This document shows positions 5,210-46,160 of a stretch of DNA of 64,000 nucleotides, piece after piece. Position 1 is the stretch's first letter; every line of letters begins with the position of its first letter. Both the position numbers and the translations under genes were made by a program. The DNA is from Rikenellaceae bacterium (lineage in GTDB: Bacteria > Bacteroidota > Bacteroidia > Bacteroidales > Rikenellaceae), in contig JAVBVG010000013.1 of the NCBI GenBank assembly GCA_031554415.1, positions 2,352-66,351 on the forward strand, given 5' to 3'. The notes under the pieces are model-generated. The model saw nothing but the letters and a program-made list of their open reading frames with translations. It was not told the origin of the DNA and ran no database searches.

Positions 5210-5291
5210 AGATAAAAATATTGGCGGGTTTTCTTAGCGGCAGGCGAATAAAAACTTACAGAATCGCCGCGCACCGCTCTGGTTGGTGATG

Positions 5292-5326: not shown

Positions 5327-5328
5327 GT

Positions 5329-6054: not shown

Positions 6055-6069
6055 TCTCTATTCTCAAAA

Positions 6070-6126: not shown

Positions 6127-6159
6127 ATTTGTTGCTATTTTTTTCTATCCGTTCACTCT

Positions 6160-19916: not shown

Positions 19917-19938
19917 TATGAGTTAAATTGTGAATATT

Positions 19939-20463
19939 ATGAGCAATGTAAATCTCACGGAAATACTACATCCTAAGATGGATATACTCTTCGTGGCACT
20001 TAATCCGCCTCAGAAATCCAACTCAAATGGACATTATTTCTCTGGTAATAAGTCATTTTGGAATTTGTTATATCAGTCAGGACTTATAACTCAAGAAGTT
20101 GTATCGCCATTAACCGGAGATAATGAGGTTTTTAGGCAGAATACAATAAATTATAAAAATAGCGTATTTGGAATTACAGATTTGGTTCATGATGTTGTTC
20201 AAACTAATAGCAGTGGGGTAAAAGTGGCTCAAGACAGAATAGATAGAGTTCTTAAATTATTAGCGAAACATGATGTGAAAAATATGTGTATCATTCATTC
20301 AAAAGTTGGCAAAGCATTTGAAAATATTCCTAGGCTAAACCGCCAACAAAGATACGGTCTAATAGGTCGTTTAGGTAATACATATGTATATGAAATGCCA
20401 TTCCATAATGCGTCAATTGCTAATAAAGAAAAAGAATATCGGAAGCTAATATCTGCGCTTTAG
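19939..20463 (+). CDS. Divergent Mug/TDG-family (UDG family 2-like) DNA glycosylase
   Basis: ILFVALNPPQKSNSNGHYFSGNKSFWNLLYQSGLI aligns by eye with E. coli Mug [41 protein letters not shown] aligns with GVTKLV. The gene is strongly AT-rich; I counted about 38 % GC in its first 100 nt. Confidence 0.65.
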   Translation: MSNVNLTEILHPKMDILFVALNPPQKSNSNGHYFSGNKSFWNLLYQSGLITQEVVSPLTGDNEVFRQNTINYKNSVFGITDLVHDVVQTNSSGVKVAQDRIDRVLKLLAKHDVKNMCIIHSKVGKAFENIPRLNRQQRYGLIGRLGNTYVYEMPFHNASIANKEKEYRKLISAL

Positions 20464-22444: not shown

Positions 22445-22480
22445 GCGACCTCTTTTAACGACGTTTCTTTAGCAATGTAA

Positions 22481-22519
22481 AATCCCCGCGAACCGTCTGT
22501 TCGCGGGGATTTTTATTTT
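22481..22519 (+). terminator. Strong intrinsic terminator
   Basis: A 12-bp stem, atccccgcgaac/gttcgcggggat, is followed by tttttatttt. Confidence 0.7.
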
Positions 22520-22595
22520 GTCGGCTGGCCGCTGATAATCAGTGATATATGGCGGACAGGCGATTATACTTTTTCGGAATTTTACGCCGGGGGTC

Positions 22596-22626
22596 TTGAC
22601 AAGGGCTTCCCGGCGTATTATATTTG
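22596..22626 (+). promoter_or_regulatory. Consensus-like promoter facing the phage-like cluster
   Basis: TTGACA lies at 22596..22601. After a 17-nt spacer comes TATATTTG at 22619..22626, which also satisfies the Bacteroidetes -7 box TAnnTTTG. Confidence 0.4.
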
Positions 22627-22880
22627 TTCCGAATACAGGATGCGCTTCGGACAAATCCAAGCAAGCTTGTTTTGCCTCTCGGCTTTCACTGTATTTGCCG
22701 AAGATCAAAAATTCCGGACGGGCCGGATCCTTCCGCCCGCAACATAAAAAGCGCGCTTTACAGAAATTTTTTTCGCGCCGCCGGAAATCTGAAAACCGAA
22801 TGTTAATAAATCAATGGGAGTTCTGCCTGTTGATAACCGCGCCACCGTTTCCCGTCTTCCGGCGCGCCTAAAAACTCGTT

Positions 22881-23123
22881 ATGAGTCCGAAAAAAACATC
22901 CTGCGAAGAAAATTCCGCACAAACCGGAACCGGCCGCCCGGCCGGCTGCTTCGATCTCAAATCTCTGGAACAGAAAAGTCTGGCATCGATGGAGGATGCC
23001 CTATCCTCGGTGCGCGAACTCTCGGCCGCCAGGCTCGATGCGAAACTCTCGGTGGCGCGCCTTGCCGGTGTCGCCCGCGAACTGCGCGAACTTATCAAGG
23101 TCATGTCGGTCTACGGATATTGA
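22881..23123 (+). CDS. Hypothetical small protein (80 aa), predicted helical
   Basis: The call rests on the ORF only. The C-terminal half has a heptad-like Leu/Ala/Arg pattern. It competes with Arg-rich shadow ORFs in other frames. Confidence 0.3.
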   Translation: MSPKKTSCEENSAQTGTGRPAGCFDLKSLEQKSLASMEDALSSVRELSAARLDAKLSVARLAGVARELRELIKVMSVYGY

Positions 23124-23212
23124 TAAACAAGCCTGTTGTCATCATGTGCTGACAGTTTTTCAACACTCTTTCGACGCGTTTTCAACAAATATTATCAGTA
23201 AAATAAGCACAC

Positions 23213-23614
23213 ATGAAAAAAGAAGAATTAACGGATATCCTGCGCGCCGCCGCGACCGGCGCGGGATACGCATTCCACACGGGAGCCGCCCACCGGATGA
23301 ACGGAGCGATCCGCGTGTATCCGGCGGCGTGGCTCGAACCCCCGGTGCTGAAATCGGCCGAAGGGCGCATGGAGGGCGACCTGACCTACCGCGTGACACT
23401 CCATATGATGGCGCTGCCCGCCTCGGCCGATAAGGAAGCGCTGTGGACGAAACTCGAGGAGGACGCCCTTGCCGTTGCGCGCGCCATCGCTTCAAATCCT
23501 GCGGTAAGCCGGATTGCCGATATTTCGTACGCCCCGGCGGAACAGTCGCTGACCGCACACGGCGAGGTCTCGATCGCGCTCGCCTGCGACATCGCCATGT
23601 GGTATTACATTTAA
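23213..23614 (+). CDS. Hypothetical virion-associated protein (133 aa; size and position compatible with a head-tail/neck protein)
   Basis: Codon usage is clean and it is tightly packed with the downstream ORFs. I recognised no diagnostic motif. Confidence 0.55.
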   Translation: MKKEELTDILRAAATGAGYAFHTGAAHRMNGAIRVYPAAWLEPPVLKSAEGRMEGDLTYRVTLHMMALPASADKEALWTKLEEDALAVARAIASNPAVSRIADISYAPAEQSLTAHGEVSIALACDIAMWYYI

Positions 23615-23634
23615 AAAATACATAACTCATAATT

Positions 23635-24654
23635 ATGAATGTAATCTCTTGTCCAAAGGCCTATCAGTCGGCTTTCCGCGACGCATGTTTCGTGCTGGAC
23701 GGATTCTCGACATCCTCGGGTGTCGACGTGACGATATCCTCGTTTTCGCAGTACGGCGGCTTAGGGGTGAAGCGCGTCTACGCCTCGGGTGAGGTATCCG
23801 TGAACGCCGCCCCCTACATACGCCGCCTGCTGGCGCCCGAACCTGTGTGCGGGACCCCGCTGGGCGTTTATCTCGCCGTGAAACGGGCGGTCACATGTTA
23901 TGTTTCCGCCGAGGGGAGCAACTCGCCGGCCGTTTACCTTACCGGAGGTTCGGAGGACGCTCCCGTAGATACCATCGCTTCGGCGTCGCCCGGCGTGCTG
24001 AAGATACGCATGGGCGAAACCGACGAACTTTCGGTAGTCACAAGTGGAGGCAGGATAAAGCCGCTGATAAAATTCCGCCACGAAGGGGTCGAATACACCG
24101 ACCGCTCGCAGATATACTCCGCCAGCACCGAGATGCAGGCGGTCGTCGTGAATGCGGACGATATAGGAAGGCTGTTTACAGCGAATACGGGCGCCCCCGT
24201 GTCGGAAATGACGGAATTTACGATCTCGCTGGAGATAAGGGTGGGTTCGTCGGATATTTATGTCGACCGCCGCTACGAGATAGACCGCAACACGGGCAGG
24301 GGACGCCGGCTCGCCTGGGTCAACAGATACGGTGCAATAGACTATTACACGTTTCCTTATGTCGCGGGCGGCCGGGTTTCTGGCAGCCGCGGGAGGATAT
24401 ACACTCCCGACGGTTACCGCACTGTGGCCACGTCGGCCGAAACCGCGGAAACGCTCCTGTCGGAGCCGTGCGACGCGGCCTGTGCCGGATGGCTCTCCGA
24501 GATATTCTCGTCGCCCGCCGTATGGACGGTCGACGGAACGCACTTCGAAAAGGTGGAGGTCGCGGCCGGTTCGGCGGAATACCCGTCGGCGCATCCCGCA
24601 ACTGTCGCCGTAACTGTCAGTCCCGCCGAAAAACCATTCTCACGGAAATACTGA
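23635..24654 (+). CDS. Hypothetical structural protein (339 aa)
   Basis: Long ORF, 7 nt from the next gene. I recognised no motif. Confidence 0.6.
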   Translation: MNVISCPKAYQSAFRDACFVLDGFSTSSGVDVTISSFSQYGGLGVKRVYASGEVSVNAAPYIRRLLAPEPVCGTPLGVYLAVKRAVTCYVSAEGSNSPAVYLTGGSEDAPVDTIASASPGVLKIRMGETDELSVVTSGGRIKPLIKFRHEGVEYTDRSQIYSASTEMQAVVVNADDIGRLFTANTGAPVSEMTEFTISLEIRVGSSDIYVDRRYEIDRNTGRGRRLAWVNRYGAIDYYTFPYVAGGRVSGSRGRIYTPDGYRTVATSAETAETLLSEPCDAACAGWLSEIFSSPAVWTVDGTHFEKVEVAAGSAEYPSAHPATVAVTVSPAEKPFSRKY

Positions 24655-24661
24655 CGCGCAT

Positions 24662-27043
24662 ATGGAACTCTACATCGACAACAAGCGGGTGGATACCGAC
24701 GCCGCGACGGCCGTTTCGATATCGCTCTCGGTAACGACCATAACCGATCCGCAGAAAGGGCGCACGGGCTACACGCGCAGCATCAGGATCCCGATGACGC
24801 CCGGTAACGACGCCGTTTTCGGATACGCAGGCGAGATCCACGGACGCGACCGCTTCAACGCCGCGCAGCATATCGGGCGGATCGAACACGACGGCGCCGT
24901 GCTGATCGAGGGGCCGCTCTATTTGAGCCTGTGCGAGCGTTCGGGCGGCGGCGGAAGCTACGAGGTCCACATTATCGGCGCCTCGAAGGAGTGGGCGCGC
25001 AGAGCCGCCGCGCTGGGACTGCAGTCGACGGAGATCGATTTTTCGAAAACTCTGAGCGCCGCCGCCATTTTTGCGAGCTGGACGGGCGACACCCCGGTCA
25101 GGTTCCTGCCCGTGATGCGCGAAAAGACCACCTACGATTACACGTCGGGCAGCGTCATCCCGGCCATGAAGGTGCTCACGTGCGACGATTACCACCCCTT
25201 CATCCACGCCGCGACGCTGCTGAGGGCCGTCTTCGCCGGAAGCGGCTACACGGTCCAATCGGATTTTCTCTCCGGAGGGCTCTTCTCGTCGCTCTATATC
25301 AGCGGCAACTATCCGACCAGCGACGTTTCCGTTCTGAAGTCCAACATGGATTTTCTGGCACGCCGTTTCGCGCCGCGTTCGGCCATAGCCAACGTGATGG
25401 GGCGCGTCTACGCCGATCCCTACCGCACGGCCTACACCGTCGGCAACATCGTCGACACGGCCGATCCGTCGCAGTCGTCGGGAGGGGTGTCGTACGACGA
25501 CGTCTACACCAATAACGGATGCTTCCAGATGGATGACGACCGCGTCATGTTCATGCCCACAGGGACGGTTTCGGTCGGATTCCAGTACCACCTGAAGTAC
25601 ACCACCGACTATTACATGAAGGACCGCACCGAGTTGACCGGGTTCAACCGCGTCTACCTGGGAGGGGATTCGCCGAGGATATTCAAACTGGTTAACACCT
25701 ATCCCGACCGCCGTGCGTCGTTCCGCCAGGCGCGCACCTACACCCTCGCGGTCTTCAACCATGTCGCGGGACGCCAGTACCAGATGCGCTACACGGCGGA
25801 AACCTTGTCCGGGGGCACGACCACGGTGAACCTAGCGGTGGTTTCGACGCGCTTTTCCACGGCGACCATAACGACCTCGCAGCCGGTCAGCAACCCCGTG
25901 CTCTATTACCGCACATCATCAACCGGAAGCTGGTACGCTTACGCCGACGACTGGGCACTGTACGACGGTTTCGTGACGGAAAGAGGGACAGCCGACGTCG
26001 AGCTGACCATGCGCACGGCCCCCGAAACCGTCACGCGGGCAAAACCGAAATTCTTCGACTCGATCTATTTCGGAGGAGCCGATCCGGGAATGACCCTCAC
26101 TGTGAGCGATAAAACATGGGTGCGCCCGGTTTTCTACGCCCAGCCTACCGAGGGGTCGACGGTTTCGTTCGCCGACGTGGCCGCCCACGGCGCGACGCAG
26201 ATGGATTTCATTAACGCCATGCGCCAGATGTTCAACCTCTGCTTCCATACCGACAACCGGGCGAAGATAGTGCGTATCGAACCGCGCGAGGATTTCTATA
26301 CCGCCGGGCGCATTGTCGATTGGACATCCCGGATCGACATGGACAAACCAATCACGGTGGAGGAACTCGGCGGAGACCTGTCGCGGACGATGGCTTGGAG
26401 ATACCGGTCGGGCGACGGCGCCGTGGCGCGCCGCAACCGTTCGGCGGGGGAGACGATGGGGTACTGGAGCGCCGATGTGGAGAACACCGCCGCCGCCGAT
26501 TCGGTGTCGGTTTGGGAGAACGCCATGTTCACCTGCTCGCTCAACGCCTCCAATGCCTATCTCGGCGCACAGTCGGCGTCGCTCGTCCAGGCGGGGGACA
26601 CATCCGTCGAAACGCTCGACCGCACCGAGGATCTCAATTTCGAGCCGAAAGTCGTGCGCTACGAAGGGCTGAAAACGCTTCCCGCCAACGAACTGTGGGG
26701 CTGGCCCTCCGATGCGCCCGCCTATCCCAAACTGGCTTTCCACGATCCGGCGGCAGGCTATACGCTCTGTTTCGAAGACCGCGACGGATGCACCGGGCTC
26801 CATTCGCGATACGACCGTGATGTAAGACTGTGGAACAACTCGCGCCGCGTGACGCTGTGGCTCGACCTCGATCCGGTCGATGTGGAGTCGCTCTCTTTCC
26901 CCACCGGGACCGGTCCCGATTTCCATACGCTCTTCCGCCTCGACCTCGACGGCGAACAGGGCCTCTACACCCTCGAAGAGGTGTGTAATTACGACCCTTC
27001 GGCAGCCTCGACAAAATGTATTTTCATCAAACACATACCGTAA
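24662..27043 (+). CDS. Large hypothetical structural protein (793 aa), putative tail/receptor-binding component
   Basis: It is the largest ORF of the cluster. The N-terminus MELYIDNKRVD... resembles the style of phage tail proteins. No P-loop is visible. Confidence 0.6.
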   Translation: MELYIDNKRVDTDAATAVSISLSVTTITDPQKGRTGYTRSIRIPMTPGNDAVFGYAGEIHGRDRFNAAQHIGRIEHDGAVLIEGPLYLSLCERSGGGGSYEVHIIGASKEWARRAAALGLQSTEIDFSKTLSAAAIFASWTGDTPVRFLPVMREKTTYDYTSGSVIPAMKVLTCDDYHPFIHAATLLRAVFAGSGYTVQSDFLSGGLFSSLYISGNYPTSDVSVLKSNMDFLARRFAPRSAIANVMGRVYADPYRTAYTVGNIVDTADPSQSSGGVSYDDVYTNNGCFQMDDDRVMFMPTGTVSVGFQYHLKYTTDYYMKDRTELTGFNRVYLGGDSPRIFKLVNTYPDRRASFRQARTYTLAVFNHVAGRQYQMRYTAETLSGGTTTVNLAVVSTRFSTATITTSQPVSNPVLYYRTSSTGSWYAYADDWALYDGFVTERGTADVELTMRTAPETVTRAKPKFFDSIYFGGADPGMTLTVSDKTWVRPVFYAQPTEGSTVSFADVAAHGATQMDFINAMRQMFNLCFHTDNRAKIVRIEPREDFYTAGRIVDWTSRIDMDKPITVEELGGDLSRTMAWRYRSGDGAVARRNRSAGETMGYWSADVENTAAADSVSVWENAMFTCSLNASNAYLGAQSASLVQAGDTSVETLDRTEDLNFEPKVVRYEGLKTLPANELWGWPSDAPAYPKLAFHDPAAGYTLCFEDRDGCTGLHSRYDRDVRLWNNSRRVTLWLDLDPVDVESLSFPTGTGPDFHTLFRLDLDGEQGLYTLEEVCNYDPSAASTKCIFIKHIP

Positions 27044-27046
27044 ACC

Positions 27047-27217
27047 ATGGACAATACCGAGAAAAAAGCAGAAATGACAGACCGCCCCATTACCTACGTC
27101 GAAGCCGTGGAGCTGATCGCGCAGTCGCTGGCATCGCTCCGCATCTACGTGGTCGAATCCGACATTACCGACGCGCAGAACAGCGTGCGGGCCATCGTCG
27201 AAAAAGCCAGTTTCTGA
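27047..27217 (+). CDS. Small hypothetical protein (56 aa)
   Basis: Found by hand: MDNTEKKAEMTDRPITYVEAVELIAQSLASLRIYVVESDITDAQNSVRAIVEKASF. Its TGA shares one base with the next ATG (TGATG). It is below the 60-aa cut-off of the ORF track. Confidence 0.4.
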   Translation: MDNTEKKAEMTDRPITYVEAVELIAQSLASLRIYVVESDITDAQNSVRAIVEKASF

Positions 27218-27495
27218 TGGCCGCGCCCATGACACGTTACGAAAAGGAGCTGTCGCGCATGGTGGCCGAGCGGTACGGGAAACTCCCCGCCGCCGAACTC
27301 GTGGCCGAACTGTGCCGCATCGGAGTGGTCGATCACACCTTGTGCAAGGTACTCGCCGTCCGACAATACGTCGACGGACTCGTCAAAGAAGGATCAGGCA
27401 AGGTCGACGCCATGTGGCTCGCCGCCGAACACTTCTGCGCGACCTACGAATACGTCCGCAAGTGCATGTATTATTATATAGATGTCAATATTTAA
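27217..27495 (+). CDS. Small protein (92 aa) with possible C-terminal HTH (Mor/small-DNA-binding-like)
   Basis: It uses the internal ATG of ORF 27016..27495 (MAAPMTRYEKEL...). The upstream part of that ORF is Arg-rich and overlaps the 56-aa ORF. The HTH assignment is by eye only. Confidence 0.45.
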   Translation: MAAPMTRYEKELSRMVAERYGKLPAAELVAELCRIGVVDHTLCKVLAVRQYVDGLVKEGSGKVDAMWLAAEHFCATYEYVRKCMYYYIDVNI

Positions 27496-27579
27496 TGATG
27501 AATGGTTAATGATAAATGATATTGTGTGCCACTTTTTAATTAACCATTAACCATTCACCATTGTCCATTAACCATTATT
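27494..27579. repeat. Heptad-arm hairpin, TAA-type variant (AATGRTD / TAACCAT heptamers)
   Basis: The left arm is aatgatgaatggttaatgataaatgat. The right arm is taaccat-taaccat-tcaccat-tgtccat-taaccat. It lies between 27495 and the protease start at 27587. Confidence 0.65.
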
Positions 27580-27586
27580 TAAAATT

Positions 27587-28513
27587 ATGTTAGCAGAGAT
27601 CAAACTTACAAATGCGGCGCCGGGCGTTACGGTCCTCGATATCGAGGGCGTGATCGGGGTGCCGGAGGAGTGGCAGTTCGAGGAGCCGTCGGGACGCGTC
27701 GCCACCTACCGAAAATTCAAGGACTCCCTCGGCGCCATATCGAGGATACGCTCGGGCGAGGTGGTGGTGAATATCCGCTCGACCGGCGGCGACGTCGGCG
27801 ACGCTCTCCTCATCTACGACGCCCTTACTACCTTGGATGCGACGATCACGACGCGCTGTTACGGCTATGTGGCTTCGGCCGCGACGCTCATCGCCCAGGC
27901 CGCCTCGGAAGGGTGCCGCGAAATTTCGGCGAATTCGCTCTACCTGGTCCACAATGCCGTCAGCAACTGCGAAGGCAACGCCCGCGACTTCCGCCAGAGG
28001 GAGGAACTGCTGCTCAAGACCGACGAGCGCATCGCCTCGATCTACGCCGCGCGTTCGGGACGCGACGCGGGGGAATTCGCCTCGCTAATGGCCGAGAACA
28101 ACGGCGGCGGACGCTGGATGTCCCCCGAGGAGACCCTTGCGATGGGGCTTGTCGACCGGATCACCGATGCCGTGCAGGTTCCCGGCGAGGCCGCCGGGCT
28201 GATGAACGGAAAAACGTCGCCAGGGAAACGCAAAAGCCTTTCGGGACGCATCGCCGCCCTCGTCGACTTCCTGTCGGGCGAAAAAGCCACGCCGCTTCCC
28301 GCCAACGCCGCCGATACCGACGCCATGCGCTGGCAGCAGGATGTCGAGATCGATAAACTCCGCCAGAAGATCACATCGCTTGAAAGCGAGAATGCGCAGC
28401 TTCGCGCCCGTCCCACCGAAACAAAATCAAAGGAAGACCCTTCGCCCGCGGAGAGCCGCCGTTCGGCCAATCATGACGCATACTCGCGCGATGCCGAAGG
28501 ATTCTTTAAATAA
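27587..28513 (+). CDS. ClpP-family (S14) prohead protease with C-terminal scaffold-like coiled-coil extension
   Basis: The motifs are NIRSTGGDVGDALLIYDAL, GYVASAATLIA (Ser) and LYLVHNA (His). The C-terminus DKLRQKITSLESENAQLRA looks like coiled coil. Confidence 0.85.
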   Translation: MLAEIKLTNAAPGVTVLDIEGVIGVPEEWQFEEPSGRVATYRKFKDSLGAISRIRSGEVVVNIRSTGGDVGDALLIYDALTTLDATITTRCYGYVASAATLIAQAASEGCREISANSLYLVHNAVSNCEGNARDFRQREELLLKTDERIASIYAARSGRDAGEFASLMAENNGGGRWMSPEETLAMGLVDRITDAVQVPGEAAGLMNGKTSPGKRKSLSGRIAALVDFLSGEKATPLPANAADTDAMRWQQDVEIDKLRQKITSLESENAQLRARPTETKSKEDPSPAESRRSANHDAYSRDAEGFFK

Positions 28514-28631
28514 TCAACCGAGGCCGTTTACGGCCAAACTCATCGACCGGAGCAGGTCAGTCGCCGCAGGCGGTGCCGTTAAAGCGAAGGGAGGTAACTA
28601 AAATCAAACCAATAAAAAAATCAAAACAGCA

Positions 28632-29621
28632 ATGAGCATTATCACAGAACCAAAAACCTATGCGGGCAAAGACCTCGAAACGATCTTCTTCCGCCCGATA
28701 TTTTCCGGCCCCGACGCGAACGATCTGGGCATCAGGATACTCTACAACACGCCTGTTCCCACGACCCTGAATTTCTGGCGCGGATCGACCAATATCCTCC
28801 AGAAATACACCGCCGGAGGATGGAACGGATGCGGCGTGTCCGAAAGGTTCCAGAAAACGATAGACCTCCATAAGGTGAAGGCCGAAATGGGCTATTCAGC
28901 CGCGGAGTACTTCTCGATGGTCTACGAACTTATCACGGGCCGCGCCGACGTCAACATGGACGACCTGAGCGGAACCGAACTCGAAGAGGCCGAAACCAAA
29001 CTCTTCAAGGAATCGATCGCCGAAAGCATCCGCGCAACGATGTGGTTCGGCAACGTCGATCGCACCGGCGGGATGCTGAATACGTTCGACGGTTTCCTGG
29101 CCAGACTGAGCAAAGACATAGCGGAAGATCCGAATGTATTCGCAGCCAATGAGTTGTCCGCCGAGCAGTACGAAGCCTGCAGCGGCGAAGAGATACTGAA
29201 GAAGGCATGGAAACAGGCGCCGACACTGCTCAGGGAATTCAAGAATCAGGGGGAACTGGTCTACTTCGTTTCGTCCGATGTCTATGCACGGTACGAGGAA
29301 TCGCTCGACAGCGCAACGCTCGAAGCGGCATATCTCGCAAAGCAGCAGGGTCGCGAATCACTCTCTTACAGGGGTATACCAGTCGTGGACATACAGCTCT
29401 CCGGCTACTCCTACATGTTCGGAGATGTGCCCAACGAGTTCGCTCTCCTGACCGACCGCCGCAATCTGGCGCTGGCAGTGAACACGGCCGATTTCCCCGG
29501 TACCGAAGTGCGCATGTGGTACAATCCCGACCAGATGGAGAACCGCCAGAGGGCTGTTTTCATGGCCGGTTGCGACTATCTGCTGCCGGAGCTGATTTCG
29601 TTCATATACTGTTCCCTGTAA
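28632..29621 (+). CDS. Putative major capsid protein (329 aa)
   Basis: Its position directly after the prohead protease and its size fit a major capsid protein. I did not recognise a motif, so the call is positional. Confidence 0.55.
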   Translation: MSIITEPKTYAGKDLETIFFRPIFSGPDANDLGIRILYNTPVPTTLNFWRGSTNILQKYTAGGWNGCGVSERFQKTIDLHKVKAEMGYSAAEYFSMVYELITGRADVNMDDLSGTELEEAETKLFKESIAESIRATMWFGNVDRTGGMLNTFDGFLARLSKDIAEDPNVFAANELSAEQYEACSGEEILKKAWKQAPTLLREFKNQGELVYFVSSDVYARYEESLDSATLEAAYLAKQQGRESLSYRGIPVVDIQLSGYSYMFGDVPNEFALLTDRRNLALAVNTADFPGTEVRMWYNPDQMENRQRAVFMAGCDYLLPELISFIYCSL

Positions 29622-29625
29622 ATCC

Positions 29626-30123
29626 ATGCCGTTATCCGGATTGGAAAGGGTTTCCGCAAAACCCCGCGGAGGGATCGTGACGGTGGAACTCGTTCCGGCG
29701 CACGCTTTCCGGGGGGCGGAATATGACCGGGACACGGAGTGTTTCATTTCCGTCGATACTTCCGAGCCTTTCGCCGCCTATGTTTTCCGTGAAGACCGCG
29801 CTTCCTACACCGAAGAGTCTTCGGACACCGGAGGACTGCCTCTCGTGAAGCACATTCTGAAAATGGAGTTTCCCGCCGGAGCGGAAACGAACCGCGCGCT
29901 GGCCGAACTTTGCGCGCTGTCTGCCGGAGGTTTCGCGGCCATAGTCACCACCGGCAGGGGAGAACGCCTGCTGGCCGGATATTCCACACGCTTCGGCACG
30001 CAGTATCCGCTCCGCCCGGCAAAGGTTTCGTCCGCTTCCGGCTCGCACCCGTCCGACTTCCCGTCGGTAACAGTCACGTTCGAAAGCACCGACGCGGAAT
30101 ACTCGAAACCTCTGCATAACTGA
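29626..30123 (+). CDS. Hypothetical virion protein (165 aa)
   Basis: It starts 4 nt after the capsid ORF and codon usage is clean. Confidence 0.5.
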   Translation: MPLSGLERVSAKPRGGIVTVELVPAHAFRGAEYDRDTECFISVDTSEPFAAYVFREDRASYTEESSDTGGLPLVKHILKMEFPAGAETNRALAELCALSAGGFAAIVTTGRGERLLAGYSTRFGTQYPLRPAKVSSASGSHPSDFPSVTVTFESTDAEYSKPLHN

Positions 30124-30272
30124 AACTTGCTTTTCTTTTGCCACCTTTTAGAAAAAAGGTGGCGCCAAAACCTTTCGACGGAAGCTACGCTTCCTACTAT
30201 ATGTAGTGCTGTGAATGCTTGCTGAGGTAGGCTCTGGTTATGCGGAATGTGCGGGTTGCACGAAGTGTAACA

Positions 30273-30331
30273 ATTCTTGTGTGGGATTTACTTGTGAAAA
30301 TTCATTTTCAACATAAATCCCGCACAAGAAT
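30273..30331 (+). other. Long hairpin (18-bp stem, one G:U on the + strand RNA) in the capsid-portal gap
   Basis: attcttgtgtgggattta pairs with taaatcccgcacaagaat. The loop itself contains tgaaaat/attttca. Confidence 0.6.
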
Positions 30332-30523
30332 ATTTTCAGGCTGCGCCTGCCGCCAAATTCCGAGTAACATACGAAGAGCAGCCATACTTGTAAGCGTTGA
30401 TCCACATCAACACAATATCAAAATAAACCGCTGCGGCCGTTGCCACCGCCGCCGGCGTTCCGGCAATCTTTTGGCTACTTTGTGATTTGACAAAGCAGCA
30501 TAAGAAAAAAAGAAAAATTCAAT

Positions 30524-31759
30524 ATGAAAAAAAACAACAATAACCGTCGTCAGGGGCGGGTTTACGCGGTACGCGGTTCGAAGGAGCCGATGGGCGGATG
30601 GGTTTCGGGCAGGGTTGTGTCCGACGCCAAGTTTTGGCGTTGGGGCGATGACAACCTGCTGCCCAATGCGCTGGCGCTGATGTCGCGCCGTTCGACGACC
30701 CACCGCCGTATCATCAACGACAAGGCCGACTACATTTCGGGCAAGGGTTTTTCGTTCGATCAGGAGCAGGAGCTTCTGGGGCGTTTCGCCGAACGCGCCA
30801 ACGGCCGGGGCGAAACACTGCGCCAGGTGCTCAACAAGCTGGCTTTCGACAAGGCTCTGTTCGGGAATGCGTTTCTGGAGATCGTTACCGATCAGGATCA
30901 TTCGTTCCTGTCGCTGCACCACCAGGACGCCTCCCGCTGCCGCGTTGCCAAGGACGGGCGCAACATTATCCTGCACCACGACTGGACCCGCTACAAACAG
31001 TCCGAGGCTCATGTGCTGCCGCTTTACCCCGATTTCGCGTCGTGCGATGACGGGCTTCTGCGCTCCGTCATCCATTACAAGGACTACGAGCCGATGTTCG
31101 AACACTACGGCGTGCCGTCGTACATCGCCGGGATGAACGTTTCGGCGATCGCCTGGAAGACCGACAAATGGAACATCAGCCGCCTGGACAACTCGTTCCA
31201 GCTTTCGGGCGTGATGATGCTCGACGGCGCGGTGGACAGCGAACAGCAGGCAGACGAGATCGTGAAGACCGCCGAAAGGAAGTTCGCCGGAAATCCCGGA
31301 CAGGTGATGTTCATGATCAAGGAGAGCGACCAGAACGACAATTCGCGCTTCATCCCGATCGCCTCGGCCAACGATGGCGACTGGAAGGCGCTCCACGACC
31401 AGGCCACTTCTGATATCGTCGTGGCGCATTCGTGGTTCCGTTCGCTGAGCGGTCTCGACTATGGCAGCGGTTTCAACGCCGAACGCATCCTGCACGAGTA
31501 CGAGATCGCGCTCAACACAGTGATTCTCGCCGAGCAGGCCGAATTGCTGGAGCCGATCCGCCGGGTACTGGAGCTGATCCTGGCCGTCGACGCCTCGTCG
31601 CTGCAGGTGGTGAACCGTCCGCCGACCAAGGCCAAACCCCTTTACATGAAGGTGTGGGAGGCGCGCAAGGCCGACGGCCTGGAGTACGACCCCGACGACG
31701 AGAACCAGCAGTGGTACCTCGGTCAGATCACTAAATATAACATGAAGAATATAGATTAG
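30524..31759 (+). CDS. Phage portal protein (PBSX/P2-like family by eye)
   Basis: It is 411 aa. Stretches typical of that portal family are INDKADYISGKGF, GNAFLEIV, YGVPSYIAG and IVVAHSW. Confidence 0.7.
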   Translation: MKKNNNNRRQGRVYAVRGSKEPMGGWVSGRVVSDAKFWRWGDDNLLPNALALMSRRSTTHRRIINDKADYISGKGFSFDQEQELLGRFAERANGRGETLRQVLNKLAFDKALFGNAFLEIVTDQDHSFLSLHHQDASRCRVAKDGRNIILHHDWTRYKQSEAHVLPLYPDFASCDDGLLRSVIHYKDYEPMFEHYGVPSYIAGMNVSAIAWKTDKWNISRLDNSFQLSGVMMLDGAVDSEQQADEIVKTAERKFAGNPGQVMFMIKESDQNDNSRFIPIASANDGDWKALHDQATSDIVVAHSWFRSLSGLDYGSGFNAERILHEYEIALNTVILAEQAELLEPIRRVLELILAVDASSLQVVNRPPTKAKPLYMKVWEARKADGLEYDPDDENQQWYLGQITKYNMKNID

Positions 31760-31837
31760 TCATGAGTTATGAATCAGGAGTTGTGGTGCGGCGGATGCCG
31801 CAGGCTTTTTTGATTCGTAATTCGTAATTCGTAATTT
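31760..31837 (+). terminator. Heptad-arm hairpin (ATGAGTT / TAATTCG variant) enclosing an intrinsic terminator
   Basis: The arms form 15 bp, including three G:U pairs that exist only in the + strand RNA. The inner stem tgcggc/gccgca is followed by cttttttg. Confidence 0.7.
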
Positions 31838-31839
31838 AA

Positions 31840-32304
31840 ATGAAGTTATTGATTACACCTGCGCAGGTGGCCGAAACGGCCTTCCGCGCCCCCGATTTCA
31901 TAACCGCCGACGCCGTTCCGGAGGCCACGATCCTCGCCGCGCAGCAGAAGTTCATCCGTCCGGTTCTGGGCGGGCTTTACGAGAAACTGTGCGCGGGGGA
32001 GTATCCGGATTTTCTGTCGGAATATCTCCTGCCGCCGCTCGCTCTGTATGTCAAGATGCTGATGCTGCCGTCGCTGTCGGTGCAGGCCGGTGCGGCGGGA
32101 GTGGTCGAGGTCGATTCGAAGAACCTTTCGCGGGCGGGCGATACGCGCCTTCGCTATGCCGTGCGCCGTCTGCGGAGCGACGCTTCCGCTCTCATGAAAA
32201 GGGCGGTCGGACAGATCGAGTCCGACCCGGACGCTTATCCCGAATACGACGCGCGCCGCAACGTGCTGAACCGCCGCTCCATCGAAGGGCGGATAGTCCT
32301 GTAA
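31840..32304 (+). CDS. Hypothetical protein (154 aa), possible head-tail adaptor by position
   Basis: ORF quality and position between portal and holin support it. No motif recognised. Confidence 0.5.
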   Translation: MKLLITPAQVAETAFRAPDFITADAVPEATILAAQQKFIRPVLGGLYEKLCAGEYPDFLSEYLLPPLALYVKMLMLPSLSVQAGAAGVVEVDSKNLSRAGDTRLRYAVRRLRSDASALMKRAVGQIESDPDAYPEYDARRNVLNRRSIEGRIVL

Positions 32305-32309
32305 CAGTT

Positions 32310-32738
32310 ATGGAAAATACTCTTAAATACATCTGGGGCTGCGTGACCGGAGTGTTCGCGCTCCTGGTGCCGATACAGGGCCTCGTCGTCTGCGCAATGG
32401 TCTTCGTCGCGATAGATTTCGCGACGGGGATCGTCGCCTCGCGGTGCCGCGCCCGCCGCGCCGGACTCCGCTGGAGTTTTTCGAGCCGCAGGGCGTGGGA
32501 CACCGTTACCAAACTGATCTTCGTGATGGCGGGGATCGCGCTTGCGTGGATGCTCGACAGTATGGTGCTCACCTTCGTCGAACTGCACCTGGCAAAGGTT
32601 TTTACCGGATTCGTGTGCGGGGTCGAATTCTGGAGCTACCTCGAGAACGCCGCCGACATAACAGGGCACCCGGTTTTCAGCGCTTTAAAGCGTCTGCTGA
32701 AAGGCAAGGTCGATAAGGCGCTGAAAAATGAAGAGTGA
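32310..32738 (+). CDS. Phage holin family protein (holin_4_1-like)
   Basis: It has three or four TM segments. AIDFATGIVAS ... EFWSYLENAADITG matches the D-x-x-TG ... S-x-x-EN pattern of that holin family. The start is the internal ATG of ORF 31989..32738. Confidence 0.7.
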   Translation: MENTLKYIWGCVTGVFALLVPIQGLVVCAMVFVAIDFATGIVASRCRARRAGLRWSFSSRRAWDTVTKLIFVMAGIALAWMLDSMVLTFVELHLAKVFTGFVCGVEFWSYLENAADITGHPVFSALKRLLKGKVDKALKNEE

Positions 32739-32825
32739 AGAATGAAAAATGAAGAAAGATCTTCAAGAATATTATAAACACGGCTTTGCCGTGCACCATT
32801 CTTAATTCTTCATTTTCTATTCATC
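32725..32825. repeat. Heptad-arm composite hairpin between convergent holin and hslR
   Basis: The left arm is tgaagag-tgaagaa-tgaaaaa-tgaagaa and the right arm is cattcttaattcttcattttctattcatc. The inner stem is cacggc/gccgtg. The arms overlap both stop codons. Confidence 0.7.
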
Positions 32826-33212
32826 GAGGTCCTCGATGAACATATCCTCCATAAGGGCGTCGATATCGCGGCGCTCTTTTTTTGTGGGACGTCCCGTGCC
32901 GCGGTCTCGGCTGATGAAGATGGTTTCGCGCGGAACCAGCAGCTTTTCGAGCTCTTCCCTCGGGGTGATGTTTTCGGCGTAACGCGCCACGTCCCTCGCG
33001 GGCAGGCGGTTGTTAACCAGCTCTAAAACCCGGAACCGGAATGTGATCTGCCCTTTCCGCACGTCGATGATGTCGCCCGTCTTGACGTCGTAAGAAGGCT
33101 TTACCCACGCTCCGCCCACCGACACACGGTTCATCTTTACGGCATCCGCCGCCACCGTGCGCGTCTTGTAGATCCTGACGGACCACAGCCACTTATCGAT
33201 TCTTACGCTCAT
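32817..33212 (-). CDS. hslR: Ribosome-associated heat shock protein Hsp15 (S4 domain)
   Basis: The N-terminus is RIDKWLWSVRIYKTRTVA. It is 131 aa. Confidence 0.85.
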   Translation of the reverse strand: MSVRIDKWLWSVRIYKTRTVAADAVKMNRVSVGGAWVKPSYDVKTGDIIDVRKGQITFRFRVLELVNNRLPARDVARYAENITPREELEKLLVPRETIFISRDRGTGRPTKKERRDIDALMEDMFIEDLDE

Positions 33213-42942: not shown

Positions 42943-44241
42943 TTAACAATTCTTAAAAATAGGAATGGCTTCCGCTATCGTGAAATTGCTGCCGCCGATA
43001 TAGACCATATCTTCGGCCGACGCCAGCGAGAGAGCTTTGCGGACAGCTTCCGCGACCGGAACGACACATCCGCCTTCGATGCCGCGGGCGGCGAAACGGC
43101 GGGCGAGCTCTTCGGCGGGCATGGCGCGTTCCACCCCCGCCTGTGTAAGGATATAACGGGCATCGCGCGGCAGCAGAGGGATTATCGCATCGAGGTCCTT
43201 GTCGGCCGCGAAACCCAGAACAATATAGAGCGTGCGGTATTTCTGCGCGGCTATCTGGCCCGCCGCCTGTGCTATTCCGTGGGCGTTGTGGGCCGTGTCG
43301 CAGACCACCAGCGGATGTTGGCCGAAAACCTGCCAGCGTCCGGCGAGCCCGGTCCGCGAGGCGGCGTGAGAGAGTCCCTCGCGCAGGGCCGCGCCGCTTA
43401 TATCGAGTTCCGTCCGCAGTTCATCGACCGCAGCCAGAACTGTAACGATATTCATCCGCTGGTAATCGCCAGCAAGGTCGAGGGGAAATGTCTGCCTGTT
43501 GCCATCCGCACAGGCCACCTCTAAAACGGTTCCGAACTCCGAGTGCACGGAGCTTACCACCCTGTATTTTTGGTCGGCGAAAACAATTGATGAACTGAGT
43601 TCGGCGGCTTTTTCGATGAAAACAGGCGCGCTTTCCGGGTCGGTTTCGCCTATTACGACCGGGACGCCCGGCTTGACGATGCCCGCTTTTTCGGCGGCTA
43701 TCAGCGGTATCGTGTCGCCCAGATATTGCGTGTGTTCGAGCCCGATGTTGGTGATGACGCTCAGGAGCGGCGTGATGATGTTTGTGGCGTCGAGCCTGCC
43801 GCCGAGTCCGGTTTCTATGACCGCGGCTTCGACCCCCGCCCGCGCGAACCAATCGAAAGCCATCACGGTCGCCATCTCGAAAAAGGTCATCCCCGACCGC
43901 ACCATTTCGTCCTTATAAAGTTCGGTAAAGCGGACGACCTCCTCTTCCGGGATCATCGCGCCGCCCACGCGTATTCGTTCCCGGAAATCGACCAGATGCG
44001 GCGAGGTGTAGAGACCCGTGCGGTATCCGGCCGCCTGCAGTACCGACGCGAGCATATGCGAGGTCGAACCCTTGCCGTTGGTTCCGGCGACGTGCACGGC
44101 GCGGAATTTCCGCTGCGGATCGCCCAGGCGTGCGGCGAACTCCGCGACGCGTTCCAGTCCCGGCTTATAGGCCCCCGCCCCCTTGTTCTCGAAAACCGGC
44201 AGCGAGTTGAAAAGGAACGTTATAGTGTCTTGGTAGGTCAC
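42943..44241 (-). CDS. folC: Folylpolyglutamate synthase/dihydrofolate synthase
   Basis: The P-loop is VAGTNGKGST. A GTG start at 44241 overlaps the lnt stop (GTGA). The N-terminal 170 codons of ORF 42943..44757 are Arg/Pro-rich junk overlapping lnt. Confidence 0.85.
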   Translation of the reverse strand: MTYQDTITFLFNSLPVFENKGAGAYKPGLERVAEFAARLGDPQRKFRAVHVAGTNGKGSTSHMLASVLQAAGYRTGLYTSPHLVDFRERIRVGGAMIPEEEVVRFTELYKDEMVRSGMTFFEMATVMAFDWFARAGVEAAVIETGLGGRLDATNIITPLLSVITNIGLEHTQYLGDTIPLIAAEKAGIVKPGVPVVIGETDPESAPVFIEKAAELSSSIVFADQKYRVVSSVHSEFGTVLEVACADGNRQTFPLDLAGDYQRMNIVTVLAAVDELRTELDISGAALREGLSHAASRTGLAGRWQVFGQHPLVVCDTAHNAHGIAQAAGQIAAQKYRTLYIVLGFAADKDLDAIIPLLPRDARYILTQAGVERAMPAEELARRFAARGIEGGCVVPVAEAVRKALSLASAEDMVYIGGSNFTIAEAIPIFKNC

Positions 44242-45809
44242 TTGACTATGTGGTCTTTCTTGCGGATGCGGTAGGCGATGAAATAGAGAATGCTCAGCCC
44301 GAGGACCAGCAGCGATATCCGGGCGAGGTAGTCGCCGAAACGGACGTAGAGCGTGGTTTTGCGGTTGAGGGGGATGTCGGCCGTGATGGCTCCGCGCGTT
44401 TCGTAGGCGAGGGTTTCCAGTACGTCGCCGCGGGTGTCGATGAAGCCGGATTTTCCGGTGTTCGCGCTGCGGGCGATCGCCCTGCGGGTCTCGACGGCCC
44501 TCAGGCGGGCGTAGTTGAAGTGCTGGCGGTAGCCGGGGGTGTCGCCCCACCAACCGTCGTTGGTGATGATGAACATCACCTCGGCGCCGTTCCGCACGAA
44601 TTCGGTGTAGTACCGGCCGTAGATCGACTCGTAGCAGATGCCTGCCGCAGCATGCACCCCGCCGTTGTCGAAGACCTTGCGCACGGTGTCGTAGCCCAAC
44701 TGTCCGCTGATGCCGCCCAGGTCGACCACAAGACGCTGCAGGTATTGCACCCACCACCAGTCGGGCATCATCTCGACGCCGATCACCAGTTTCGACTTGT
44801 GGTGCAGGTCGATCTTCCCCTCCGGATCTATCGCAATGGCGGTGTTGTAGACGTCGTAATAGCCTTGCTGCTCATTCCCGCGCGCGGTTTTGGTCTTTTT
44901 CTCCGAGCCGTACAATTTGTAGGTGGTTGCCCCGACAATGACCATGGCGTGAGGGTATTTCTCCCCGGCCACCCGGCGTATCTCAGCCAGCGACTGCGAG
45001 TTTTCCAGACGGCCTTCGGTCAGTCCCTCGTCGATGGCCGTTTCGGGCATAACGATGAAGTCCGCGTCCGCCGGAGCCTTCTGCATGAGGTCTACCAGGT
45101 TGGCGGTCTGTTCTTCCTGCGACAGCGTGAACTTTTCCTCGTAGGAATCTATATTGGGCTGGACCACGGTAACTTTCGCGGTGCGCTGGGGCTCGTCCCA
45201 GGCAAGGAACATGACGATCGACACCAGCGGCGGGATGACGGCGGTCAGCACCGGGGGCAGCCAGTTGCGCGGACGGCGCACGATCAGAAATTCATAGACA
45301 AGTATGTTGGTTACGAGTACCCACAGCGTGCCGCCGTAGACGCCCGTCCATTCGTACCACTGCACCAGCCATATGTCGCTTGCGAAGCCGTTGCCGATGT
45401 TGAGCCACGGGAACGACGCCTGGTTCCAGTTGTAGACCCATTCGCCGACCGTCCATACCGACACCAGCACCGTGTAGGAGAGCGCTTTGGGCGCCCTTTT
45501 CGAGATGAAGAACCACAGCATGAACGGTAGTCCGGTGTAGACGTATGCGAAGAAGGTCGCCGCGATCGGGCCTGCCGGGGTGGAGTTCCACACCCACCAG
45601 ATGGTGAGCGCGTACCACAGCGTGATGAAGAGCATCGTCCAGCCTAACATCTTCCGGAAAGAGCGGCGCGAGCGGTCGTAGCGCGCGGCGAGTATCAGCA
45701 TCGGGACCAGTCCGGCGAGCATCACGAGTCCCGTGAGCTCCATCCAGCCGAACGACATCATCACGGCCGCGAGCACCACCAGTAGCAGGTTTTCAAGATT
45801 TTTCTTCAT
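44238..45809 (-). CDS. lnt: Apolipoprotein N-acyltransferase
   Basis: An N-terminal multi-TM region is followed by a CN-hydrolase domain with MPETA, a K residue and ICYES. Confidence 0.88.
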   Translation of the reverse strand: MKKNLENLLLVVLAAVMMSFGWMELTGLVMLAGLVPMLILAARYDRSRRSFRKMLGWTMLFITLWYALTIWWVWNSTPAGPIAATFFAYVYTGLPFMLWFFISKRAPKALSYTVLVSVWTVGEWVYNWNQASFPWLNIGNGFASDIWLVQWYEWTGVYGGTLWVLVTNILVYEFLIVRRPRNWLPPVLTAVIPPLVSIVMFLAWDEPQRTAKVTVVQPNIDSYEEKFTLSQEEQTANLVDLMQKAPADADFIVMPETAIDEGLTEGRLENSQSLAEIRRVAGEKYPHAMVIVGATTYKLYGSEKKTKTARGNEQQGYYDVYNTAIAIDPEGKIDLHHKSKLVIGVEMMPDWWWVQYLQRLVVDLGGISGQLGYDTVRKVFDNGGVHAAAGICYESIYGRYYTEFVRNGAEVMFIITNDGWWGDTPGYRQHFNYARLRAVETRRAIARSANTGKSGFIDTRGDVLETLAYETRGAITADIPLNRKTTLYVRFGDYLARISLLVLGLSILYFIAYRIRKKDHIVK

Positions 45810-46160
45810 TGTCGAAAGCAAAAAATGATTCGCGTCAAAATATAATCGCCGTCGGCGTTCCGGCAAATATAGTGAAAGGTAAGTGCAATCGAAGAAAATT
45901 TATTTTCTAAAGATTGCCGAACCGTATCCTATATTCTACAAATATAATGATATTCGGCGCGATTTATTACTTTTGTAGCTTAGAGTCCGTCTGAAAGTTA
46001 TTCAATAAATCTGTTATGGCCTTTTTAAGCGCTTTTCACACAACGTCTTCGTTACAATGGAACCCCATTGCGCCTCGTCCGTTGCGTAAAAACCAACTTA
46101 AAAATCATCATAACATTATTATCAATAACCTTAAGACAGACTCTTAGAAAAGAGAAGAGG

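Follow-up and report, generated by a model that had tools for sequence, protein, structure and literature searches.

A syntenic operon of phage virion and lysis genes in Rikenellaceae chromosomes, probably part of a split particle system resembling gene transfer agents

What is the role of a cluster of phage virion genes that stands in a bacterial chromosome without genes for integration, replication and DNA packaging? Such a cluster is located at positions 22596-32738 of a 64-kb stretch of DNA from a Rikenellaceae bacterium (contig JAVBVG010000013.1 of assembly GCA_031554415.1, positions 2,352 to 66,351), which is hereafter referred to as the window. The cluster forms a single co-oriented operon on the + strand downstream of a conserved promoter. 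The original prediction, made from the window itself, regarded it as a long-resident and maintained particle-forming locus, neither a freshly integrated nor a decaying prophage, and offered an element resembling a gene transfer agent (GTA), with its packaging ATPase encoded elsewhere, or a capsid-forming satellite as possible explanations. The analysis described here indicates that the locus is, on balance, probably the structural and lysis operon of a domesticated, split, GTA-like particle system derived from a phage. This reading is built on the identities of the genes, their conservation, their synteny and the purifying selection acting on them, together with the split architecture of the system in relatives and the promoter type that its two parts have in common.

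The operon is bounded by a terminator at 22479-22513 upstream and by the convergent hslR gene (32817-33212, minus strand) downstream, and contains 11 credible genes, which are designated g0-g10. The results are shown in Table 1. The ClpP-type protease, portal protein, holin and capsid-sized protein named in the original prediction are all recovered by Pfam and PHROG matches, the capsid protein by its position and a PHROG match. The protease g5 matches Pfam CLP_protease (8.6e-28) and the head maturation protease family phrog_94 (7.8e-39). The putative capsid protein g6 matches phrog_1623 (head and packaging; 1e-9) and, weakly, the major head protein family phrog_9953 (0.005) and Pfam GP7 (0.0097, under the cutoff). 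The AlphaFold model of the largest protein, g3, has a pLDDT score of 88.4 and a pTM score of 0.82. Its best Foldseek matches in the PDB are the tail tip of phage Bxb1 (6e-6) and the tail tip complex of phage lambda (2e-5), followed by Mu gp44 and VgrG-type hubs, and every one of these matches has a low TM-score (0.08-0.17 when normalised to the query). Against BFVD, this model gives 144 matches, all of which are proteins of tailed phages, many of them uncharacterised (best 6e-43, TM-score of about 0.55). A profile search of PDB sequences with g3 is empty. The structural comparisons suggest that g3 is a putative tail-tip or baseplate-hub protein.

The genes around the operon are host genes. The upstream flank contains genes for an FtsX/MacB permease (lolE), a UDG-superfamily protein, UbiE, a lipoprotein and a SPOR protein, and the downstream flank contains those for an S4 protein (HslR), Pth and L25 (hslR-pth-ctc), as had been read from the window. 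The G+C fraction of the cluster (0.55-0.61) lies inside the range of the whole window. A search of the 64-kb window gives no tRNA gene, and no direct repeat of at least 10 nt is common to both flanks. The cluster contains no Walker A motif except for a chance match within ClpP, and no terminase is found among the other large open reading frames (ORFs) of the window. No homologue of the small terminase subunit (TerS), large terminase subunit (TerL), tape measure protein, fibres, endolysin or integrase of the related prophages described below is found in the window. Thus, the core-gene flanks, host-like base composition and absence of P-loop, terminase, integrase, replication genes, endolysin, tRNA and flanking repeats described in the original prediction all stand. 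The features by which a prophage is recognised, namely an integrase, att repeats, a replication or lysogeny module and a complete block of packaging and tail genes, are absent from the locus.

The capsid protein g6 has 1730 homologues. Among the 120 matches listed, all are at least 62% identical to it and every source name is Rikenellaceae. In a survey with one genome per species, the capsid gene is detected in 168 species genomes, and the best 80 of these capsid-positive species, which were examined, all belong to the Rikenellaceae (Alistipes, Tidjanibacter and others). The whole module from g1 to g10 is collinear in the loci of these best 80 species. Related loci retrieved for comparison are labelled L001, L002 and so on. 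The cluster occupies the same locus on both sides (lolE-ubiE-lipoprotein-SPOR and hslR-pth-ctc) in L005, L006, L008, L047 and L048, and shares the hslR side alone with L007, L014, L039 and L044, so that the comparison of this locus among relatives, which the original prediction had called for, gives nine genomes with a shared flank. The housekeeping proteins of these nine syntenic genomes are merely 56-94% identical. Elsewhere in the family, the cluster has different neighbours, or the blocks that flank it are inverted (L040, L041), as chromosomal rearrangement around a fixed element would bring about.

Nearly all copies of the cluster genes are intact, when a gene is counted as intact if its best tblastn match contains neither an in-frame stop nor a frameshift. 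This is the case for g3 in 66/66 loci, g5 in 67/67, g6 in 80/80, g8 in 75/76, g9 in 73/73 and g10 in 52/52. Lesions are present in few copies: stops in g2 of L015, g7 of L014 and L046 and g1 of L018, a frameshift in the portal gene of L039, and a Mu-like insertion in g3 of L086. The ratio of nonsynonymous to synonymous substitution rates (dN/dS), determined against L006 and L005, is 0.03-0.24 for g1-g10 and 0.05-0.19 for the flanking genes at similar dS, with dS values of 0.4-1.4 in these comparisons. The portal protein g8 is the most conserved large protein of the cluster (60-95% identity over 76 loci; dN/dS 0.055-0.062). Among the nine syntenic genomes, the pairwise identities of the portal, capsid and g3 proteins follow those of pth, ctc and hslR with Spearman coefficients of 0.73, 0.81 and 0.93 respectively. 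Both a recent insertion and neutral decay are excluded by the intactness, synteny, dN/dS and co-divergence with the flanks. The cluster is inherited vertically in the Rikenellaceae under purifying selection, in agreement with the original view of a long-resident, maintained locus.

Several variants of the cluster are observed in this comparison. The capsid gene of the window (28632-29621) and that of L006 (10001-10978) encode proteins that are 72% identical (dS 1.02), whereas the portal and g3 proteins of the same pair are 95% (dS 0.56) and 85% identical. The capsid proteins of the window and L005 are 80% identical. The low identity of the capsid in the former pair suggests that capsid alleles have been exchanged between lineages or with related prophages. 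A variant without the ClpP protease is present in L002 (8495-11245, for example), L015, L020, L022, L029, L030 and L058. It carries a serine-rich 262-aa protein, an 89-aa homologue of g4 and a 104-aa protein, its capsid protein consists of 414 residues with an 85-residue C-terminal extension, and a 286-aa gene, which is common to the prophages and absent from the window, is located between g0 and g1. The serine-rich protein, which follows g3, was considered as a remnant of a tape measure protein and was rejected on the basis of a BLASTP comparison with the prophage tape measure protein (E = 2). An N-terminal scaffold in the 414-aa capsid variant was likewise rejected, since the extra 85 residues are C-terminal and unrelated to the protease. 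In L086 (IMGVR_UViG_3300014824_000655, 1-7300), g3 is truncated by the inserted Mu-like transposable prophage. This insert codes for a MuB-like ATPase, a transposase of 674 aa and an S24 repressor of its own, the last of which is 46% identical to the repressor found beside the orphan TerL gene described below.

The origin of the cluster is indicated by prophages in the IMG/VR database, whose portal, capsid and g3 proteins are 62-67%, 56-61% and 25-33% identical to those of the window respectively. They also contain homologues of g1, g2, g7, the DUF6712 protein, the protease and the holin. Their gene order was read in L106 and L128, and a related example is IMGVR_UViG_3300045988_096262. The order begins with a methylase, ParB, a radical-SAM-like protein, TerS (173 aa with an N-terminal helix-turn-helix (HTH)) and TerL (490 aa), continues with a 289-aa protein, g1, a 155-aa protein, g2, g3 and the tape measure protein (1478 aa; PhageMin_Tail 1.5e-35), then with ClpP, capsid, g7, portal and DUF6712, and ends with fibres, holin, endolysin, a spanin-like protein and a tyrosine integrase, after which host genes follow. 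These Alistipes prophages occupy variable sites. A distant portal relative in IMG/VR, L126 (33% identity), is a different, low-GC phage. The gene order of the window cluster, in which tail-like genes precede protease, capsid and portal, had been regarded as atypical. This view is not upheld, because the Alistipes prophages share this order, which is thus the ancestral order of the phage group rather than a rearrangement. The cluster of the window begins exactly where TerS and TerL would stand and ends before the fibres, and the tape measure gene is missing. Its slot is occupied by g4, which is the most constrained gene of the cluster (dN/dS 0.03). The integrase, methylase, ParB and other missing prophage genes have no homologue in the window, nor up to 10 kb away from the cluster in 83 related loci. 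The genes for mobility and replication have been lost from the cluster.

The TerL protein of the prophages has thousands of homologues, many of which consist of 477-483 residues, are about 63% identical to it and are encoded on long Alistipes contigs. In all six Rikenellaceae chromosomal contexts examined (L135, L140, L142, L143, L145 and L146), TerL is an orphan. A gene for a 223-226-aa repressor with HTH_3 and Peptidase_S24 domains is located on one strand (unseen in L146, where the contig ends), and a 92-99-aa ORF followed by TerL diverges from it. The housekeeping neighbours of the orphan TerL gene differ at each locus. As a control, the TerL protein P0137 is encoded in an ordinary prophage. 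The orphan TerL matches phrog_38 (1.9e-92) and retains Walker A (PPQHGKS), Walker B (ILDD) and nuclease motifs. The dN/dS values are 0.08-0.21 for the orphan TerL and 0.06-0.11 for the S24 repressor. Thus, the orphan TerL looks functional and under selection, as judged from its motifs and substitution rates. In a metagenome scan on the S24 repressor, 80 loci were obtained, and the small ORF and TerL are present in 51 of the 53 loci whose sequence extends far enough on the side concerned.

The packaging module and the structural cluster occur in one genome, because both are present on L147, a 199-kb contig from the species of L002, at a distance of 6.4 kb. The order on this contig is TerL, TerS-like gene, small ORF, repressor, 6.4 kb of host genes and structural cluster. 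The genes in the intervening stretch are, by reference to L002, those for NUDIX, DEAD helicase, GroES/EL and UDG proteins. Of the 80 repressor loci, 34 contain a TerS-like ORF of 173-209 aa, which separates the small ORF from TerL. It aligns with residues 61-132 only of the prophage TerS (BLASTP 2e-8) and matches the TerS family phrog_309 solely in the C-terminal part of the profile. A search for an HTH gives no match in this ORF, whereas the HTH of the prophage TerS is located at residues 4-67. A TerS protein without a DNA-binding domain has been linked to non-specific packaging in the GTA of Rhodobacter capsulatus (RcGTA) and has been noted for that of Faecalibacterium (FpGTA) (PMC12946183).

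A Peptidase_M15_4 gene is located near the orphan TerL gene in L145 (13729-14820), L146 (2088-2792), L221 (5490-6206) and L226 (5259-5753). Its matches to endolysin PHROGs are weak, and in L145 and L146 it adjoins tsaD and tamB. This gene may simply belong to the host, or may encode the lysin that the system lacks.

The promoter of the structural operon is the best sigma-70-like match of the region (11/12) and is conserved in L005 and L006. The 64-kb window contains a single match to the composite pattern TTGAC[AT]-N15-21-TAnnTTTG, which is located at 22596, and the other promoter-like sites of the window are of the TTTG or TAnnTTTG type. The composite promoter is kept upstream of the cluster in 44/44 loci examined. 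In 1.30 Mb of Rikenellaceae loci, it gives 58 matches, 55 of which are located directly upstream of the cluster on the same strand. The sole match in each of L135, L140, L142 and L143 is located in the intergenic region between the repressor gene and the small ORF, and faces TerL. The use of this rare promoter type at both the structural and TerL loci argues for their co-regulation.

The repressor beside TerL has the same CI-like architecture of HTH and S24 domains as the non-canonical LexA of Bacteroidetes, and its promoter carries the perfect palindrome TTCAA-N3-TTGAA in the spacer (L142 5456, L145 9009). The non-canonical LexA, which consists of HTH_XRE and S24 domains, binds CTAA-N5-TTAG or GGA-N5-TCC and controls SOS genes (PMC8565304). 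In L002 (3103, 20456 and 20667) and L030 (3295, 20005 and 20216), the palindrome is also located upstream of the structural promoter, at a distance of 100-130 nt, and inside the S24 gene. This palindrome may be the operator to which the S24 repressor binds. An S24 operator at the promoter of the window was also considered and was rejected, since no copy of TTCAA-N3-TTGAA is found close to the cluster in the window, L005 or L006.

In many loci, the TTGACAA element of the cluster promoter is located in the loop of a GC-rich hairpin. This hairpin spans 22582-22632 of the window, and is also present in L002 (3220-3271), L018 (3047-3098), L021 (2931-2982), L040 (1808-1859), L051 (4031-4082) and others. 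Its arms vary between species and stay complementary, and a T-rich stretch follows, which merges with the -7 box. The covariation of the hairpin at the -33 element is greater than that of all 500 shuffles, and its register varies, because a partner slid by one column scores equally well. The promoter hairpin might act as terminator and promoter in one, or as a structure with a regulatory role.

Resident virion genes without integrase or replication genes, inherited vertically under purifying selection, characterise a GTA, and all of these are found at the locus. The suggestion in the original prediction that the packaging ATPase of a GTA-like element is encoded elsewhere agrees with the presence in relatives of an orphan TerL at a separate locus, which has the rare promoter type in common with the structural operon and lies on the same contig in L147. 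The particular genome from which the window is derived presumably contains the TerL module as well. A more specific proposal is that the system is a family-wide GTA of the Rikenellaceae of independent origin, with a split TerL module, a DNA-damage S24 switch, a tail tip without a tape measure and a TerS without an HTH. This proposal is tentative, and we consider it possible but a little short of probable.

The system might have arisen and might work as follows. The ancestor of the family would have acquired a temperate tailed phage, the lineage of which persists as the integrase-bearing Alistipes prophages, and the integrase, replication genes, tape measure and fibres would then have been lost. 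The element would have broken exactly between TerL and the next gene into the structural operon and a packaging and control module, the latter consisting of the CI-like HTH and S24 repressor, the divergent 92-99-aa ORF, in some cases a TerS without a DNA-binding N-terminus, and TerL. A signal of the DNA-damage type would cause the S24 repressor to cleave itself, by analogy with CI, LexA and the non-canonical LexA (PMC8565304), and would thereby de-repress the TerL module, and the structural operon would fire from the same rare promoter type. Protease, capsid and portal proteins would assemble proheads, and TerL would fill these heads with host DNA without sequence preference. The g1-g3, g7 and g9 proteins would make a short tail tip without a tape-measured tube. 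The particles would be freed by the holin together with an endolysin encoded adjacent to it or elsewhere, and would transfer the packaged host DNA to recipients.

A number of observations weigh against this reading. The window contains neither a terminase nor an S24 repressor nor the small ORF. No tape measure, tail tube, fibre, receptor-binding protein or ejection protein is recognised in the cluster, so that adsorption and DNA delivery are left without identified machinery. The HK97 fold of g6 is confirmed neither by its AlphaFold model, which was built from a 17-sequence alignment and is unusable (pLDDT 36.6), nor by a profile search against PDB sequences, which gives no match. No endolysin gene adjoins the holin gene in the window, L005, L006 and L008. 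In 21 of 80 other loci, an endolysin gene (phrog_873, about 1e-43) directly follows it. Only L002 and L030 have the palindrome TTCAA-N3-TTGAA close to the structural promoter, and the window does not. None of the six orphan-TerL loci found by the TerL search contains the TerS-like gene. The studies of virus-like particles from the gut that were consulted report GTA-type packaging for families of Bacillota only, not for Rikenellaceae (PMC12946183). Finally, related intact prophages are present in the same genus, and could complement the missing functions.

The absence of a tape measure, fibres and a recognised ejection protein is also what particles made for another purpose would lead one to expect, such as PBSX-like killing or lysis, packaging without delivery, or release of DNA, for example into a biofilm matrix. 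The hub g3 and its neighbour g2 diverge fastest (23-45% identity across the family), as surface-interacting proteins would, and PBSX is a GTA-like packager that need not transfer DNA (PMC7667829, PMC12946183). Nevertheless, a contractile killing device would need a sheath or tube, neither of which is present, and no toxin-like domain is seen. The most conserved parts of the system are the portal protein and TerL with its intact nuclease motifs, which points to DNA packaging as the selected function. Particles of this kind are therefore an unlikely explanation, albeit the most serious of the alternatives.

Complementation by related prophages is the basis of another alternative, in which the locus, as a defective or satellite-like element, would contribute the heads, and TerS, TerL, tape measure and fibres would be taken from a co-resident helper prophage of the same lineage. 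The missing functions are exactly those that a helper could supply, and the integrase-bearing Alistipes relatives carry every missing gene. Dependence on a helper is improbable all the same, because neither an integrase nor a replication gene is found in 83 loci and no att repeat is present, because the syntenic position of the cluster and its divergence, which tracks that of the flanks over deep splits, are unlike those of sporadic satellites, and because Rikenellaceae chromosomes contain an orphan TerL of their own, which is under purifying selection and has the same promoter type. The capsid-forming satellite named among the options of the original prediction is disfavoured by the lack of integrase and replication genes within 10 kb in these 83 loci and by the vertical inheritance.

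Retention of the proteins without any DNA packaging, either as a decoy that interferes with the assembly of related phages or as an empty capsid compartment, is improbable to the same degree. Related phages that infect the same hosts would be a target for such interference, and there is no terminase in the window; however, eleven genes, including those for portal, hub and holin, are intact and collinear in about 80 species, which goes beyond the needs of a decoy, and the orphan TerL has a promoter of the same type and shares a contig with the cluster in L147. That the cluster is an ordinary cryptic prophage remnant, functionless and slowly decaying, might be suggested by the many absent phage genes and the few copies with lesions, but is very improbable and already contradicted by the selection and intactness tests, in which dN/dS is 0.03-0.24, equal to that of housekeeping neighbours, at dS 0.4-1.4, nearly every copy is intact over 80 species and the promoter is kept in 44/44 loci.

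Table 1. Coordinates of the features of the virion gene operon in the window
Feature	Position	Strand	Basis or remark
Structural-operon promoter	22596-22626	+	TTGACAA, 17 nt, TATATTTG; TTGACAA between GC-rich inverted arms
g0, 80 aa, conserved C-terminal half	22881-23123	+	homologues in 12 loci
g1, 133 aa, virion-associated	23213-23614	+	collinear in 45 loci
g2, 339 aa, tail-region protein, fast-diverging	23635-24654	+	homologues in 54 loci, 21-69% identity
g3, 793 aa, putative tail-tip/baseplate-hub protein	24662-27043	+	AlphaFold/Foldseek
g4, 88-92 aa	27217-27495 (~92 aa)	+	alignment of 33 orthologues
g5, ClpP-type prohead protease with C-terminal coiled-coil, scaffold-like tail	27587-28513	+	Pfam, PHROG
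g6, putative major capsid protein	28632-29621	+	position between protease and portal; PHROG
g7, 165 aa, position of head-completion or decoration protein	29626-30123	+	collinear in 63 loci
Spacer, variable, non-coding, with hairpins	30124-30523	+	poorly alignable with L005, L006
g8, portal protein	30524-31759	+	Pfam Phage_portal 2.6e-11; phrog_11226 portal 1.2e-21
g9, DUF6712 protein	31840-32304	+	Pfam DUF6712 8.5e-11
g10, holin	32310-32738	+	Pfam Phage_holin_4_1 1.1e-12; phrog_199 1e-7

The remaining genes of the operon are small or belong to no described family. The g0 gene shows coding-type conservation against L005 and L006 (dN/dS 0.24-0.42), and searches of Pfam and PHROG with its product give no match. 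The g1 protein is homologous to a 143-aa protein of the related prophage (dN/dS 0.13-0.14), matches no family in Pfam and PHROG, and is possibly involved in head-tail joining or in the tail. The g2 protein is homologous to the 301-aa prophage protein preceding the hub (dN/dS 0.19-0.22), and no match to it is found in Pfam, PHROG and PDB sequences. The g4 protein matches no Pfam family, even when each of the 33 orthologues is scanned. Its start was placed at 27217, because the orthologues carry stop codons in the first third of a 159-aa ORF that begins at 27016, and this longer ORF is an artefact. A resemblance of g4 to Mor-like HTH activators was rejected, since the scans of the 33 orthologues give no consistent family. 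The g7 protein (dN/dS 0.15-0.16) likewise matches no family in Pfam and PHROG. The g9 gene, for which no match in PDB sequences is found, is always located directly after the portal gene, and its product is probably a head-tail connector.

Twelve ORFs had been counted originally. Eleven of them are borne out, and the twelfth, an 81-aa ORF at 30240-30485, was rejected as a gene because the spacer around it is not conserved. The tight packing with gaps of 3-7 nt is found in part of the operon, in which some gaps are 4-7 nt long and others 80-400 nt. Assorted hairpins are present in the intergenic gaps. The 400-nt spacer between g7 and the portal gene contains hairpins at 30140-30163 and 30266-30338, for example. 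Its length is similar in L006, its sequence is not conserved, and it is nearly gone in L005. A scan of the cluster, spacer included, against Rfam gives no credible match. The spacer may be an internal terminator or promoter region.

Elsewhere in the window, the 177-aa UDG-superfamily gene (19930-20463) is located between lolE and ubiE at a dip of the G+C fraction to 0.52. The lolE and ubiE genes abut in L005, L006, L008, L047 and L048, which have no UDG counterpart at this position. This gene looks like a lineage-specific insertion beside the upstream flank of the cluster. At 42943-46238, a scan for the longest ORFs gives implausible ORFs only, such as a 604-aa minus-strand ORF that is rich in Arg and Gly and of low complexity.

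Alistipes and its relatives are among the most abundant bacteria of the human and animal gut. To our knowledge, GTAs are known from few lineages, namely Alphaproteobacteria, Brachyspira, Desulfovibrio, Methanococcus, Bacillus with PBSX and, recently, Faecalibacterium. Searches of the full-text literature give no GTA or GTA-like element described in Alistipes, Rikenellaceae, Bacteroidales or Bacteroidota, in line with the original prediction, which knew of none in Bacteroidales. If the GTA-like reading is correct, no earlier GTA would be known from Bacteroidota, and genes would be exchanged in the gut by a major route that has so far gone unrecognised. A particle system that is maintained by selection throughout a family would be a candidate mechanism for gene exchange in Alistipes and its relatives. 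Such a system would, in addition, contribute bacterial DNA to virome preparations and give rise to contigs wrongly labelled as viral. Because the ancestral prophage lineage persists in the same genus, the steps of domestication, namely loss of the integrase, tape measure and fibres, detachment of TerL and truncation of TerS, are readable by comparison.

Some public database records of 4-16 kb that are labelled 'viral' consist of Alistipes chromosomal DNA with the cluster, namely L001 (GenBank MT838805.1, 'UNVERIFIED: Bacteriophage sp.') and the IMG/VR records L085-L099. In L001, the portal, DUF6712, holin and endolysin genes are followed by ComEC-like and methyltransferase-like host ORFs, which were identified by reading translations only. 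Either classifiers are led by the cluster to assign host DNA to viruses, or particle fractions contain DNA of this kind.

The Alistipes prophages of the same lineage, such as L128 and L106, have the same gene order, and about 63% identity is found between the TerL protein encoded by them and the orphan chromosomal one. They differ from the present system in that they contain a TerS with an HTH, a TerL gene beside the structural genes, a tape measure, fibres, an endolysin, a spanin, a methylase, ParB and an integrase. Capsid-forming phage-inducible chromosomal islands resemble the cluster in size (about 10-15 kb), in the combination of capsid, portal and protease and in the absence of tail fibres. 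These islands are mobile, carry an integrase, replication genes, packaging genes of their own and att sites, and are distributed sporadically. In contrast, the cluster has neither integrase nor repeats, and is syntenic and family-wide.

RcGTA of the alphaproteobacterium Rhodobacter capsulatus is similar to the present system in that a chromosomal cluster of head, portal and protease genes is inherited vertically under purifying selection without integrase and replication genes, that accessory functions are encoded at other loci, and that TerS, here in relatives, lacks a DNA-binding domain. It is different in that TerS and TerL head the main cluster, whereas TerL is detached here, and in that it has a siphovirus tail with a tape measure and tube, neither of which is recognisable here. 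Expression of RcGTA is under cellular control of the CtrA/GafA type, whereas a CI-like S24 repressor is found in the relatives of the present system. Its phage ancestor and host phylum are unrelated to those of the present system, which is known from its genes alone. FpGTA is similar in that some ten genes, which together span about 10 kb, are clustered in an abundant human gut commensal, and differs in its Bacillota host and in the location of the terminase inside the operon (PMC12946183). It is near-ubiquitous in its genus, its TerS has no obvious DNA-binding domain, and a short tail is reported or expected (PMC12946183). Packaged host fragments of 8.4-8.9 kb have been determined experimentally for FpGTA (PMC12946183), whereas the present system is read from genes.

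BaGTA of Bartonella, VSH-1 of Brachyspira and PBSX of Bacillus subtilis are likewise domesticated particles, the genes of which are distributed over more than one locus or lack canonical members, and their ancestries and tail types differ from those of the present system. BaGTA, unlike the present system, is coupled to run-off replication. PBSX, which is SOS-inducible and packages random 13-kb pieces of host DNA (PMC7667829), is a killer particle that has a contractile tail and a complete tail module, unlike the present system. The best-supported reading, by analogy with these systems, is that the Rikenellaceae system functions like RcGTA, FpGTA or PBSX-type elements, in another phylum and from another phage lineage. 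It is set apart from them by the detached TerL with its CI-like repressor, the missing tape measure and the presence of g4 in the slot of the tape measure gene.

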